Source: Paludibacteraceae bacterium (GTDB lineage Bacteria > Bacillota > Clostridia > Lachnospirales > Lachnospiraceae). From it: a DNA stretch of 64,000 nucleotides. Numbering within the stretch: position 1 is the stretch's first letter; the number at the start of each line of letters is the position of its first letter. Below are positions 3,823 to 16,688 of the stretch, piece after piece. Position numbers and translations under genes: made by a program. The notes beneath the pieces are model-generated. The model was not told the origin of the DNA. It was given only the letters and a program-made list of their open reading frames with translations, and did not search any database. The stretch lies in NCBI GenBank assembly GCA_963628035.1, contig CAVGED010000015.1:1397-65396 (forward strand), given 5' to 3'.

Positions 3823-4140
3823 CTACACTTTATCTAATCCGTTCAGCTTGAACATCATCTCGGTATCCTCTGCCGGGCCGGCCATGATGTGCTTGCTGAC
3901 TGTTCCGGTCAGGCTGTTTGCCGCCTGCTCTGCTGCTGCCACAGCCGCTGTCACATCCTCTACGCTTCCGCGGAACTTCACGCATACGATCAACGGAACC
4001 GGGAGAGCGTCCGCGTTGGCAGGCTTGTTACGGTCGAAGGGCTCCATAGTGACATTGGCTGCCTTACAGCCGGCATCCCCCGCCACAAAGGCGCATACCA
4101 GACCAAATACTTCAATGATTCCCACTGCCTGCTGTGCCAT
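3823..4140 (-). CDS. divergent BMC-domain shell protein
   Basis: 105 aa. MAQQAVGIIEVFGLVCAFVAGDAGCKAANV... is BMC-like with an internal insertion. Shell-gene cluster context. Confidence 0.7.
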   Translation of the reverse strand: MAQQAVGIIEVFGLVCAFVAGDAGCKAANVTMEPFDRNKPANADALPVPLIVCVKFRGSVEDVTAAVAAAEQAANSLTGTVSKHIMAGPAEDTEMMFKLNGLDKV

Positions 4141-13083: not shown

Positions 13084-14481
13084 TCAATACTTCTTTATTT
13101 CAAAGGAATGATAGATGCAGGTTCTGGCTTCCTCTACGGTCTTGAACTCGCCCTCTTTCAGCATCTGGGCTGTGAGGTTTCCGATGGCGGTAGCCTCGGT
13201 GGGGCCTGCATGGACTTCCTTGCCGGTGTACTTAGCGGTCAACTGGTTCAGATAAACGGCATTGGCACCGCCGCCCACCACATGGATACGGCTGTAGGTC
13301 CGCCCCATGATATGTTCGATCTGCTGTGCGGTTCTGGCATAGCATTCTCCCAGGCTGTTGTAGATAACTGCTGCGATCTGTCCCGGCGTTTCCGGCACTG
13401 CCTGATCGGTATCCCGGCAATAGCGCTGAACCTCAGCGATCATATTGGCCGGAGCCAGGAAGCAATCGTCGTCCACTTCCACTCTGGACTTGAAATCGTC
13501 ACACCCGGCAGCCATGTCGCAGAGCTCCGCAAAGGAATACTTGTTATCAAGCTCCTTCTTGACATTCTGGATCATCCAGAGTCCCATGATATTCTTCAGA
13601 TAACGGAAACGGTAATCGTAGCCGCCCTCGTTGGTGATATTCGCTTTCTTGCTCTCCATAGAGCAGTTTGCCTTCTTCGTCTCGATTCCCATCAGAGACC
13701 AGGTTCCAGAACTGATGTAAAGGAAATCATCATCGTTGGCGGGTACGCTTAAGACGGCGGAAGCAGTATCGTGTGTTCCCGGCAGCACCACATTGCAGTT
13801 AAACCCAACCGTTTCCTGAATCTCCGGTTTAAAGCTGCCCACCAGAGTTCCCGGCGTATGGATCGGAAGGAACATCTCACGATTATAGCCCAGCATGTCG
13901 ATGAGTTCATAATCCCAGTCCTTTGTCTCCGGATTCACCAGCTGTCCGGTGGTGGCCATGGTATACTCCTGCATCTTCACACCGGTCAGCAGGAAATGGA
14001 AGTAATCCGGTGTCATCAGCATGGCCTTCGCCTTGTCCATATATTCCGGATGTTCACACTTTACTGCCATCAACTGATAGATGGTATTGAAGATTGCCTT
14101 CTGGATGCCGGTCCGTGCGTACAGATCATCCTCGGAGATGATCTCATAGACCTTGTCATCCATTCCCTTAGTCCTGCTGTCACGGTATCCCACAGGGTCA
14201 CCCAGAACCTGATCGTTTTCATCAAGGAGAACGAAGTCAACACCCCAGGTGTCGATTCCCATGCTCACCGGGATCTTGCCGATCTCCTTGCACTTCTTAA
14301 TCCCAGCCAGAATATTCGCAAAAAGTACTTCGTGATCCCAGCAGAGGTGTCCGTTTTTCTCCTTCATTCCGTTCTCAAAACGATAGATTTCTTCCAGCTC
14401 CATCTTGCCATCCCGGATGCTCCCCAGGATATGACGGCCGCTGGAAGCGCCAATGTCAATGGCTAAATAATAGTTGCCCAT
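13084..14481 (-). CDS. rhaB: rhamnulokinase (FGGY family)
   Basis: 465 aa. AIDIGASSGR N-terminal and HVVGGGANAVYLNQ C-terminal FGGY motifs. Adjacent to rhaA. Confidence 0.85.
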   Translation of the reverse strand: MGNYYLAIDIGASSGRHILGSIRDGKMELEEIYRFENGMKEKNGHLCWDHEVLFANILAGIKKCKEIGKIPVSMGIDTWGVDFVLLDENDQVLGDPVGYRDSRTKGMDDKVYEIISEDDLYARTGIQKAIFNTIYQLMAVKCEHPEYMDKAKAMLMTPDYFHFLLTGVKMQEYTMATTGQLVNPETKDWDYELIDMLGYNREMFLPIHTPGTLVGSFKPEIQETVGFNCNVVLPGTHDTASAVLSVPANDDDFLYISSGTWSLMGIETKKANCSMESKKANITNEGGYDYRFRYLKNIMGLWMIQNVKKELDNKYSFAELCDMAAGCDDFKSRVEVDDDCFLAPANMIAEVQRYCRDTDQAVPETPGQIAAVIYNSLGECYARTAQQIEHIMGRTYSRIHVVGGGANAVYLNQLTAKYTGKEVHAGPTEATAIGNLTAQMLKEGEFKTVEEARTCIYHSFEIKKY

Positions 14482-14511
14482 GATGCTTCTCCTTCCCTTT
14501 TCGTAAGCATT

Positions 14512-14539
14512 GTTCAGCCTGCGCCCGTTCTGGCTGAAC
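14512..14539. repeat. short palindromic REP/MITE-like element, family GTTCAGCC...GGCTGAAC (copy A)
   Basis: gttcagcc-tgcgcccgttct-ggctgaac. Related copies at 26891, 57581 and 60053. Confidence 0.7.
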
Positions 14540-14575
14540 TTATATGTAAGTTAGTATACCGTTTTTTCGGGCATA

Positions 14576-14614
14576 AAATAAGGACGGTATTTTACAAAAT
14601 TACCGTCCTTATTT
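14576..14614. terminator. 14-bp-stem hairpin, possible bidirectional terminator between the regulator region and rhaB
   Basis: aaataaggacggta-ttttacaaaat-taccgtccttattt. T-rich flanks on both strands. Confidence 0.45.
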
Positions 14615-14637
14615 GCGATTTTTGATTTCACTTGCTA

Positions 14638-14665
14638 TTTGGCGGGATAAAAATTTCCCGCCAAA
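14638..14665. other. 10-bp-stem GC-rich hairpin of unknown role upstream of the small peptide gene
   Basis: tttggcggga-taaaaatt-tcccgccaaa. No U-tract on either strand. Confidence 0.4.
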
Positions 14666-14755
14666 CGAAATGGTGTTTCCGAAGAAAATGTATTACTATT
14701 GAATCACGGATCGGATATAGCGCTATATACCCCGTCAGAATGGAGGTGAATCAAA

Positions 14756-14902
14756 ATGAACATGAGAAAATCTATAATTGCTTTCGCAATGATCGCGGCA
14801 ATTCTTGCCGCAGGCATCCTGCTTCCGGCATCTGACAATGCATGTAGCGCTGACGATACGGTTGTTGCCTATTTCCCTTGGGACATGATTGAGGGCACTT
14901 AA
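14756..14902 (+). CDS. unannotated 48-aa secreted pro-peptide, candidate signalling peptide precursor
   Basis: GGAGGTG RBS 7 nt before the ATG. MNMRKSIIAFAMIAAILAAGILLPASDNACSADDTVVAYFPWDMIEGT has a basic n-region, a hydrophobic h-region and a polar C-terminal part. It is below the 60-aa ORF-track cutoff. Its stop codon overlaps the stop codon of the convergent TPR regulator. Confidence 0.6.
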   Translation: MNMRKSIIAFAMIAAILAAGILLPASDNACSADDTVVAYFPWDMIEGT

Positions 14903-15816
14903 TCAAGTTCCAGATGATACTTAATTGCTATTTCATCCTTTATATGCTTTGCTGACCCCTCTTTCTCGCATATATTGAAGAGCGTAACCGCCTGATGAAA
15001 TAGCAATTTTGCTTCATCCTGTTTATGCATCTCATAAGCTGCACAGGCCTTATTACTAATCAGATACGGCAGTACTGCCAGCTTATTATGTTTTACACAA
15101 TAATGAATCCCCACACTGCTGATCCGATATGCTTCCCAGTGGTTTCCCACCTCTTTTCCGATTCTCCAGGCGATGTTGTTTAGAATCATCGGATACTTCT
15201 TCGCCTTCTCTTCCTCATCGATCACATGCTCTTCCAGATAATCCTTCAATTCATACAGCAATTTCAAGCCGCGCTCCTGCTGTCCCATATTGTAGTATTC
15301 CAGAGCAATGCTGTTGAGAACCGTGATCTCATCGAAGGTAAGCAGCCGGTTCCTGATATTTTTCCGTTCCTCAAAGTCCGACATTGTCAGTCGGATCGCC
15401 TCCAGCAGCTTCTCTAAGACCACCTCACTTGGCTCGCCATTCCGCTTCATCATACTGGCCTTGGCAAAGATCAGATACTGCTTCTCCAGGACATCCGAGT
15501 CGCTTATTCTGCTCTCCAGTTCCTGTATCAGAGCATCTACACTGGTATAATCCTGACTCTCCAACCTCCAGGCCAATTCCTGTATCAAGCGGTAGATCTC
15601 CATCTCCCGCTTGCTGACAAATGCACTGTAAATGGACATCGACATGCCCATCCGCTGCATGAGTGCGTCAAAGACACGTTTGCTTGGAACCTGTGAGTTG
15701 TTCTCGATCCGCGACAAGGACGATGTACTGCAGATGCCAAAGCTCAGCGCCTCCTGCGAATAGCCACGGGCTTCCCTGGTATCAAAGACCATGTCTCCAA
15801 TCGTGTAATTCGCCAT
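14899..15816 (-). CDS. XRE-family HTH regulator with C-terminal TPR-like domain (RNPP/Rgg-like architecture)
   Basis: The N-terminus MANYTIGDMVFDTREARGYSQEALSFGICSTSSLSRIENN is an XRE HTH. The remaining roughly 230 aa are helical-repeat (TPR-like). The start was moved to the ATG at 15816, which has a purine-rich RBS; the track start at 15846 has none. Confidence 0.75.
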   Translation of the reverse strand: MANYTIGDMVFDTREARGYSQEALSFGICSTSSLSRIENNSQVPSKRVFDALMQRMGMSMSIYSAFVSKREMEIYRLIQELAWRLESQDYTSVDALIQELESRISDSDVLEKQYLIFAKASMMKRNGEPSEVVLEKLLEAIRLTMSDFEERKNIRNRLLTFDEITVLNSIALEYYNMGQQERGLKLLYELKDYLEEHVIDEEEKAKKYPMILNNIAWRIGKEVGNHWEAYRISSVGIHYCVKHNKLAVLPYLISNKACAAYEMHKQDEAKLLFHQAVTLFNICEKEGSAKHIKDEIAIKYHLELD

Positions 15817-16142
15817 TCTTCCACTTCCTTTTCCTAAGTATTTCATTCATGGCAACCGGAAGCTCAAAAATCGTGCTTCCTATTGTTGAAAATTTTTTCA
15901 ACCGCCATTATACGAAAAAAAGGACTGTATAAGTGCAAATTTTGCCCGATTTGCAAATCGCATTGGCTATTCGTATATTTTATGAAGTTTGTCCATTCAA
16001 CAATGCAAAATATTTTTTCTGCTTGTCAGGCTTGTCTTTACAGTGTCAAATTTTAGTGGTATCATTACAGAAAGAGGAAGTATAAGGCATTGCATTTAAA
16101 TCGCATGACAAAAAGTACAATCACTAGAACAGGAGGTACACC

Positions 16143-16688
16143 ATGCCACTACCCAAAGAACAAATCCACACCACTGAAGATATCTACGCCCTACCGGAAG
16201 GACAGCGTGCGGAGCTGATCGACGGCCAAATGTACATGATGGCCCCGCCAAACACAAACCATCAGCGCCTTGTTATGAACCTCTCTGCCGAAATACGGGA
16301 TTACATTAGAAGAAATCATGGATCCTGTGAAGTATTTCCTGCTCCATTTGCCGTTTTTCTGAATGAGGACGATACAAATTACGTTGAACCGGATATCAGT
16401 GTCATTTGTGACAGGGATAAACTTACAGACAACGGCTGTGTCGGTGCTCCGGATTGGATCATCGAAATTGTTTCTCCTTCAAGTACCAGAATGGATTATT
16501 TCGTAAAGCTATTCAAGTATCGTACTGCCGGTGTCCGTGAATATTGGATTGTCAACCCCATGAAAAAGACTGTCCAGACCTACTCCTTTAAGGGAGAAGA
16601 AGACTCTAACCAGTATTTCTTTCAGGATGACATTCCATGTACCATTTATAAAGACTTAATCATCAATATTGATCGCCTGCTGCAGTAA
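16143..16688 (+). CDS. Uma2-family (DUF820) PD-(D/E)XK-like endonuclease
   Basis: 181 aa. The pattern ...RAELIDGQMYMMAPPNTNHQRL...EPDISVICD...PDWIIEIVSPSS is typical of Uma2 proteins. AGGAGG RBS. Confidence 0.75.
   Translation: MPLPKEQIHTTEDIYALPEGQRAELIDGQMYMMAPPNTNHQRLVMNLSAEIRDYIRRNHGSCEVFPAPFAVFLNEDDTNYVEPDISVICDRDKLTDNGCVGAPDWIIEIVSPSSTRMDYFVKLFKYRTAGVREYWIVNPMKKTVQTYSFKGEEDSNQYFFQDDIPCTIYKDLIINIDRLLQ

Follow-up and report, generated by a model that had tools for sequence, protein, structure and literature searches.

In the PlcR/PapR system of the Bacillus cereus group the pro-peptide PapR comprises 48 amino acids, its C-terminal heptapeptide is the signal, and its C-terminus reads LPFEF/Y. 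The TprA/PhrA system of Streptococcus pneumoniae is linked to carbohydrate availability; TprA is a repressor that is relieved by PhrA, and it controls a lantibiotic cluster. In the PrgX/prgQ system of the Enterococcus faecalis plasmid pCF10, which also has an RNPP receptor, the opposed, overlapping transcripts of the receptor and the peptide genes interfere with each other. The RNPP-type Qsr/Qsp pairs are known from Clostridium acetobutylicum; PMC7376267 describes six to eight predicted tetratricopeptide repeats (TPRs) for Qsr, pro-peptides of 39-50 amino acids that were mostly left unannotated, a Qsp C-terminus of the form L..P...W with a terminal tryptophan, and qsp genes that are located downstream of qsr. 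Here, a locus from a gut Lachnospiraceae genome is described, which lies in a stretch of 64,000 nucleotides of contig CAVGED010000015.1, the whole of which is called the window. It contains a gene for a 305-residue regulator with a helix-turn-helix (HTH) domain and TPR-like repeats, and a convergent gene for a 48-residue peptide. The two genes very probably form an RNPP-type cassette for cell-cell signalling by peptides, with PlcR/PapR as the closest relative. The core features are the following:

14899 to 15816, minus strand: gene for the predicted PlcR-like RNPP receptor/regulator, 305 amino acids, with HTH and TPR domain
14756 to 14902, plus strand: putative pro-peptide gene, 48 amino acids, with the ATG at 14756 and the stop codon TAA at 14900-14902
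14743 to 14749, plus strand: Shine-Dalgarno sequence GGAGGTG of the peptide gene, 6 nt (AATCAA) ahead of the ATG
14899 to 14902, no strand: TTAA that is common to both convergent stop codons, the TAA of the regulator gene running from 14901 to 14899 on the minus strand

The regulator was analyzed by profile searches and by structure prediction. A mechanical list of open reading frames (ORFs) gives it 315 amino acids from an ATG at 15846; the start at 15816 was taken as the right one because all homologues begin with MANYTIGD. The protein consists of an XRE-type HTH at about residues 1-60, matched by the Pfam family HTH_3 at residues 14-60 (expectation value (E) 6.2e-8), and of a helical TPR domain at about residues 69-300. 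Its homologues formed 97 clusters, and of 21 aligned family members all 21 matched HTH_3, 12 matched TPR_2, and 10 matched Pfam RNPP_C. The comparison of the family profile with the PDB revealed PlcR of Bacillus thuringiensis (2qfc_A) as the best match, with E 1.6e-18 and over the full length (residues 1-295 versus 1-283), while PrgX, ComR, and Rap gave weak or marginal matches (E 0.02-0.03 for PrgX). The AlphaFold2 model (predicted local distance difference test score 90.1, predicted template-modelling score 0.89) was all-helical, with about five helical-pair repeats. The top match of this model in a Foldseek search was the PlcR-PapR7-DNA complex 3u3w (E 4.5e-8, template-modelling scores 0.63/0.68), PlcR-PapR (2qfc) was also among the best, and ComR, Rgg3, Rgg2, Rap, and PrgX followed (E 5e-6 to 1e-3 for ComR, Rgg2, and Rgg3, E 2e-3 for PrgX). 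From profile and model, the regulator is predicted to be an RNPP receptor with five TPRs that belongs to the PlcR-like clan, and the C-terminal domain models as a TPR fold of the RNPP type, as had been proposed for it.

The regulator thus resembles PlcR in its XRE-type HTH, its five TPR-like repeats, and its size, which is about 290-305 residues in both. It was nevertheless ruled out that it is an orthologue of PlcR, as the identity in the structural alignment is only about 16-18% and no PlcR box is present near the cassette. The first-pass annotation had described it as RNPP/Rgg-like. The RNPP part of this description stood, the Rgg part did not. The fold is that of the same superfamily, but the family has recognisable TPR motifs, whereas the TPRs of Rgg proteins are degenerate (PMC9765709), and an NCBIfam search yielded no match at E <= 1. 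In addition, the peptides of Rgg and ComR are short and hydrophobic, in contrast to the acidic C-terminus and the Sec-type leader of the peptide in the window, so that a membership in the Rgg family was rejected.

The 48-residue product has the sequence MNMRKSIIAFAMIAAILAAGILLPASDNACSADDTVVAYFPWDMIEGT, of which ...VVAYFPWDMIEGT is the conserved C-terminal, putative signalling part. The first-pass annotation had proposed a strong ribosome-binding site and a Sec-type signal sequence, and the sequence agrees with both. The Shine-Dalgarno sequence is well spaced, and the N-terminus (MNMRK, with the positive residues R4 and K5) is followed by a hydrophobic core of 18 residues and was judged by inspection to be Sec-signal-like. 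ORFs of 30-60 codons number dozens in the region, and a 48-codon ORF by itself is within chance expectation. The ORF is counted as a gene because it is conserved across relatives, and not because of its length. Gene callers had annotated a homologous ORF of 48-51 amino acids in five related metagenome contigs, in each case convergent to and abutting a regulator gene, the product of which had 92, 91, 85, 67, or 63% identity to the regulator in the window. At loci with regulators of 60% and 53% identity the small ORF was also present, although the gene callers had overlooked it. As in PapR, a 48-residue, Sec-type pro-peptide with a conserved C-terminus as the proposed signal is thus the partner of the regulator. 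The C-terminus itself differs, i.e., the acidic and aromatic pattern F-x-x-D-x-x-E-x-x (...FPWDMIEGT) is found in place of LPFEF/Y.

For the analysis of the peptide family a comparison set of 80 loci was taken from species-representative genomes, in which the receptor family occurs at 174 loci at least. Convergent small ORFs with a strong ribosome-binding site were found 3' of related regulators at about 50 loci, and a homologous convergent ORF was present in every complete orthologous locus except one (L029). The C-termini of these ORFs share the motif aromatic/hydrophobic-x-x-D-x-x-E-x-x. It was scored with the pattern [hydrophobic]2-x2-[DN]-x2-E-x2-stop. Of the ORFs at the convergent-downstream position 23 of 212 matched this pattern, compared with 3 of 10,121 at all other positions of these loci, and two of these three are true peptides that are placed slightly further off. 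Many of the peptide ORFs do not overlap the regulator gene and end up to +194 nt away from it, so that the motif does not simply result from the coding sequence of the regulator. In the clade of the window the C-termini are AYFPWDMIEGT, AYFHWDLIEGS, AYFLGDLIEGS, AYMPWDLIEGT, AFFLGDLIEGT, AFFLHPIIEGS, GYFLPDAIECS, GFCLPFLIECS, and SFILGDMIETS. The sister clades have GFFLGDVEETF/Y, GFFLGDVIETY, FFFLDDVEETF, PLDDVEEMF, CFFLGDMWECD, MAYFDDLIEYY, CYILGDVRVSS, and F(Y/F)(I/V)AVEGD. The sequence GGAGGTG was found at the proper spacing before almost every homologous peptide ORF, also before those that have no leader.

The peptide reading frame is under purifying selection. Among the four closest orthologues, the ratio of nonsynonymous to synonymous substitution rates (dN/dS) in this frame was 0.07-0.33, with 5-13 synonymous changes per pair. 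The amino acid changes among these orthologues concentrate at the C-terminal positions -8, -7, -5, and -1. In a maximum-likelihood tree of 85 receptors the peptide classes track well-supported receptor clades, and this variation of receptor/peptide pairs resembles the pherotypes of PlcR/PapR. The N-termini of the pro-peptides are freely replaced between relatives. Most of them are Sec-like, with a K/R-rich start and 15-20 hydrophobic residues. At least four clades lack the leader, and their ORF comprises 17-23 amino acids, or possibly 11 in one clade (MSKEIHSFILGDMIETS, MKKNKNAAGFFLGDVEETY, perhaps MAYFDDLIEYY). Because leaders are swapped or lost, the active part is limited to about the last 10-11 residues. 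The conservation of the small ORF next to orthologous as well as paralogous regulators, the selection on it, and the RNPP-type fold of the receptor thus agree with the proposal of a candidate cell-cell signalling cassette.

Several variations were seen in this family. In the loci L020/L021/L028 of one species of the rhamnose-linked clade (about 3909-3962), the signal-peptide part was lost in frame, which left the 17-residue ORF MSKEIHSFILGDMIETS behind the conserved GGAGGTG, and the receptor is intact. In paralogous clades, many of which are leaderless, a gene for an ATP-binding cassette (ABC) ATPase and an ORF of about 270 amino acids without a Pfam match are located directly upstream of, and co-directional with, the peptide gene (L032:4243-5810, L035:4303-5807, L037:4224-5767). 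By analogy with the exporter PptAB (PMC7564271, PMC5167397), these two genes may encode a dedicated exporter. In the clades with GFFLGDVEETF and FFFLDDVEETF (L032:4110-4143, L033, L039, L048, L049, L058, and L096), a conserved hairpin, ACCTCCCCTCTA...TAGAGGGGAGGT, encloses the Shine-Dalgarno sequence of the peptide gene, which suggests a translational or attenuation control. Two observations concern the distribution. A record labelled Thermoguttaceae (Planctomycetota) is nearly identical to Roseburia amylophila at this locus (L072 versus L071), suggesting contamination or mislabelling, and divergent family members were also found in metagenome-assembled genomes of Treponema (L084, L085, L088), by transfer or by a binning error.

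The locus was also compared with the other known systems. Like TprA/PhrA, a member of the PlcR/TprA clade with five TPRs (PMC12700828), it has a small, putatively secreted pro-peptide encoded next to the regulator; this comparison was made by description, and the genes of a lantibiotic cluster are lacking at the present locus. To Rgg/SHP and ComR/ComS (XIP) the family is connected, apart from the fold, by the leaderless peptides of 11-23 residues of the sister clades, which recall SHP and ComS. With Qsr/Qsp it shares that the cassettes are clostridial and of the RNPP type. As far as the description allows, it differs from them by five TPR-like repeats, by a D..E.. C-terminus without L..P...W, and by the convergent genes. 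The orientation also differs from that of papR, which is co-directional and downstream of plcR, whereas here the peptide gene is convergent and the stop codon is shared.

The overlap of both TAA codons within TTAA was present as it had been described, and the same -3 (4-nt) overlap was also found in L022, L025, L020/L028, L042, L045, and L054. Neither a terminator scan nor folding revealed an intrinsic terminator between the peptide and the regulator genes, and transcription of either gene must therefore continue antisense into its partner. A weak hairpin (z-score -2.1) extends across the stop junction. PrgX/prgQ is a precedent for an antisense control of this kind, but the overlap on pCF10 is at the 5' ends of divergent promoters, while it is at the 3' ends here. 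In two close relatives (L011:3912-3945, L013:3608-3641), the regulator is extended by 9-10 codons (…IDQEPSIKSQWK) and overlaps the 3' end of the peptide gene by 34 nt instead of 4. A further cassette with the architecture of the one in the window lies elsewhere in this genome, on contig C119 (70-1130). It encodes an HTH-TPR-like paralogue of 24% identity, and a convergent small ORF (C119:927-1130, minus strand) with a 4-nt stop overlap, whose product ends with ...MKKIVKTLVASVAAILLLLSCVHISNSDKQDNVSCHEQEAVDLCFQGDDWENS and contains a lipobox-like LLLSC.

Taken together, these results are consistent with the following mechanism. The 48-residue product would be exported by the Sec system through its N-terminal signal sequence, and extracellular trimming would leave a fragment of about 7-11 C-terminal residues, located within ...AYFPWDMIEGT. 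This fragment would be re-imported, probably by one of the oligopeptide permeases of the genome, which encodes at least four OppA-type (SBP_bac_5) binding proteins. In the cell it would bind to the TPR groove of the regulator and alter its DNA binding. The peptide-bound regulator could then act at 14638-14680, where an inverted repeat and the weak -35 region of the peptide promoter overlap, and positive feedback would result. Because the two genes are arranged tail to tail without a terminator, it is also proposed that transcription of the peptide gene into the regulator gene would damp regulator expression by antisense or collision effects. The cassette may have been inserted once, in the ancestor of the genus, between the gene for an AraC-type regulator and the rhaBA promoter region, and may then have diversified into species-specific receptor/peptide pairs.

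The genomic setting was highly conserved. In all orthologues, i.e., at regulator identities of at least 53%, the gene order was AraC-type gene, regulator, convergent peptide gene, rhaB, and rhaA, with the peptide gene divergent from rhaB. In the window rhaB-rhaA leads a glycyl-radical propanediol microcompartment locus. Of the two neighbours that had been named as possible targets, the rhamnose microcompartment locus and the jetABC operon, only the rhamnose genes showed conserved synteny. An orthologue was detected in 10 of the 12 species representatives of the genus (54-91% identity), the two species without it having the least complete genomes but one, and in none of 200 other genera that were sampled from the family. 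In another genome of the same genus (G074) the cassette is split at contig ends. The orthologous regulators have identities of 53-92%, in comparison to 80-99% for RhaB and RhaA and 72-98% for the AraC-type protein. In the two closest pairs, the dN of the regulator was 0.036-0.047 versus 0.004-0.008 for the neighbours, which is 4-10 times that of rhaA, rhaB, and araC, and dN/dS was about 0.10 versus 0.01-0.03. The TPR part of the regulator also had a mild excess of dS (0.48-0.53 versus 0.21-0.31 in the flanks). The cassette has thus been inherited vertically within the genus while it diverged rapidly, as expected of species-specific signal/receptor pairs.

The DNA elements around the cassette are the following:

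14576 to 14614, no strand: palindrome of the rhamnose locus, AAATAAGGACGGTA-N11-TACCGTCCTTATTT, invariant in all orthologues
14638 to 14680, no strand: candidate operator of the peptide promoter, including its -35 region, TTTGGCGGGA-N8-TCCCGCCAAA followed by CGAAATGG, with right arm and ATGG conserved in the orthologues
14694 to 14699, plus strand: putative -10 element (TACTAT) of the peptide promoter, proposed from TACAAT at the aligned position of the orthologues and absent from the results of a consensus scan
15891 to 15913, minus strand: putative promoter of the regulator gene, with the -10 element TATAAT (15912 to 15907), then the palindrome GTTGAAAAAATTTTCAAC and the box TGGCGGTTGAAAAAATT

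The palindrome at 14576-14614 is the most conserved element in the spacer between rhaB and the peptide gene, it is unique in the genome, and it folds with about -20 kcal/mol (z-score about -6). It is also present between the AraC-type gene and rhaB/rhaA in at least six Lachnospiraceae genera that have no cassette (with proteins of 50-68% identity). It belongs to the rhaR/rhaBA system because it occurs in other genera without the cassette, and it was rejected as an operator of the cassette on this ground and for its uniqueness in this genome. It may be a site of the AraC-type regulator that overlaps the -35 region of the rhaB promoter, the terminator of the AraC-type gene, or both. Judged from this comparison, the cassette is most simply read as an insertion just upstream of the palindrome, which would mark the insertion boundary.

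This setting leads to the question of the target. It is conceivable, but somewhat less than probable, that the cassette is tied to rhamnose catabolism, in that the peptide-bound regulator modulates the divergent rhaBA/microcompartment operon, or that the rhamnose regulator, from its position on the nearby palindrome, makes peptide production rhamnose-dependent. This would be an additional claim on the target, which is compatible with a PlcR/PapR-like function of the cassette. Sugar-gated peptide signalling has precedents in TprA/PhrA and in Rgg2/3. At the present locus, such a link would fit with the location between rhaB and the AraC-type gene, which stays the same even at a regulator identity of 53% and holds in 10 of the 12 species, with the divergent arrangement of the peptide gene and rhaB, and with the distance of about 25 nt between the putative operator and the rhamnose palindrome. 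Moreover, the targets of RNPP regulators often adjoin the cassette (PMC10075063). However, constant synteny within one genus can be explained by vertical inheritance, and the palindrome, and presumably also the rhaBA promoter, works without the cassette in other genera. In addition, a DUF5680 gene separates the peptide gene from rhaB in four loci (L018, L024, L026, and L027; e.g., L018:4276-4770), and paralogous cassettes occupy unrelated genomic contexts.

Upstream of the peptide gene, a 10-bp GC hairpin at 14638-14665 had been reported by the first-pass annotation. The inverted repeat is present about 90 nt upstream of the ATG (TTTGGCGGGA at 14638-14647 and TCCCGCCAAA at 14656-14665, with a loop of 8 nt), and it folds well (about -18.8 kcal/mol, z-score -3.8 to -4.9 versus shuffled sequences). 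More distant orthologues retain just the right arm and the ATGG downstream of it. The hairpin was therefore rejected as a conserved RNA or terminator element; a T-tract after it and a terminator-like site are also lacking. The right arm and ATGG fall at the -35 position of the conserved -10 element TACTAT/TACAAT, and the region 14638-14680 may tentatively be taken as the likeliest operator. The peptide promoter has a poor -35 element (TGGTGT) and a -10 element that matches the consensus at 4 of 6 positions. Paralogous loci have long, AT-centred palindromes 50-90 nt upstream of the ATG of the peptide gene. In this zone, repeats whose arms measure 12 bp or more occurred in 30 of 75 loci, versus 0-9 of 72-79 loci in four control zones. 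At the regulator promoter, the -10 element TATAAT is conserved in the orthologues, and the box TGGCGGTTGAAAAAATT resembles TGGCGGGATAAAAATTT upstream of the peptide gene, a likeness of 17 nt that was picked post hoc. Another palindrome, GATTTGCAAATC, is located upstream of the regulator gene (15948-15959 of the window); the orthologues have (A/T)TTCGC(A/G)AAT(C/T)GAG right after the stop codon of the AraC-type gene. A genome-wide search for further copies of the operator and for members of a regulon yielded, at two mismatches, matches at chance level.

The location of these sites bears on the direction of regulation. The peptide-free regulator could repress the promoter of the peptide gene as well as its own, with the peptide releasing this repression, as in systems of the TprA/PhrA, PrgX, or QsrB type. 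The candidate sites overlap the -35 element of the peptide promoter and the region just after the -10 element of the regulator promoter, and several RNPP regulators of the same five-TPR clan are repressors or are anti-repressed (PMC12700828; for QsrB PMC7376267). On the other hand, the poor -35 element together with the incomplete -10 element would be typical of an activator-dependent promoter, PlcR as the closest solved relative is a peptide-dependent activator, and the operator assignments are themselves weak. Repression is the foremost of the alternatives, but is regarded as rather unlikely.

Also the assignment of the locus to the PlcR/PapR-like signalling cassettes has to be weighed against several observations that speak against it. 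The regulator itself stayed below the thresholds of Pfam RNPP_C and TPR, with weak matches to TPR, and the link to these families was made through the homologues and the model. The candidate signal-peptidase cleavage sites of the 48-residue product (ACS|A or PAS|D) are uncertain, and the leaderless relatives of 11-23 residues indicate that Sec export is not universal in the family. In distant orthologues the palindromic form of the inverted repeat at 14638-14665 is not kept, and the operator is weakly supported. The 17-nt box common to both promoters was downgraded, because an unbiased comparison of 16-mers did not exceed shuffled sequences in most loci. Lastly, no match to the PlcR box TATGNAN4TNCATA was found within 14400-16200, and the four matches in the window at one mismatch are at chance level.

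Two further explanations concern the small ORF itself. It could encode a secreted or membrane protein, e.g., a bacteriocin-like or envelope peptide, which would be a neighbour or a target of the regulator and not its ligand. The signal-peptide-like N-terminus and the purifying selection fit such a protein. However, conservation is restricted to about the last 10 residues, and the N-terminus is freely replaced or lost; the ORF travels with the regulator into unrelated contexts, and its C-terminal classes follow the receptor clades. A conserved tail behind a variable leader is the signature of RNPP pro-peptides, as described in PMC7376267 and PMC10075063, and this explanation is very unlikely. 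It is extremely improbable that the ORF is not translated at all and owes its conservation to DNA or RNA elements located where the regulator gene ends. The short length of the ORF, the overlap of its 3' end with the regulator gene in some loci, and the weak hairpin over the stop junction speak for this explanation, but the synonymous changes are well beyond the expectation for neutral drift, the protein motif persists through complete turnover of the DNA and at non-overlapping positions, and the strong Shine-Dalgarno sequence is conserved at the correct spacing.

The cassette adds a new subfamily to the RNPP systems, a kind already known, and does not constitute a new kind. The convergent orientation is already among the arrangements that were tabulated in the surveys of RRNPPA systems, and in one survey these systems came almost entirely from Bacilli (PMC9765709). 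PlcR has its hosts in the Bacilli, whereas the present cassette is found in anaerobic gut Lachnospiraceae (Clostridia) and lies inside a locus for sugar catabolism. The accessible text and supplements of the survey PMC10075063 and the accessible part of PMC12700828 do not mention Lachnospiraceae. In the literature searched for such regulators (RRNPP, PlcR, Rgg) in Lachnospiraceae or Roseburia, or in connection with rhamnose, no description of the family was found.

Much is known about RNPP-type quorum sensing by peptides in Bacilli and from a few clostridia, but the surveys consulted contain almost no report on the Lachnospiraceae, which dominate the human colon. The family offers readable candidate ligands, i.e., a catalogue of C-terminal peptides that is open to synthesis and direct testing, and it contains natural contrasts, namely Sec-leader versus leaderless peptides for export routes and species-specific variants for specificity. 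It may also link cell-cell signalling to the metabolism of rhamnose and propanediol, which feeds propionate production in the gut. In its widest form, which is speculative and for the time being rather improbable, the locus would stand for a genus-wide gating of, or by, the rhamnose-to-propanediol/propionate microcompartment metabolism via species-specific peptides, and also for the founder of a large, hitherto undescribed commensal signalling family with repeated switches between Sec-exported and leaderless acidic pheromones of 11-23 residues. If this were true, a PlcR-like cassette inserted into the control region of rhaR-rhaBA would tie the costly rhamnose pathway to cell density, and with it to the pherotype.

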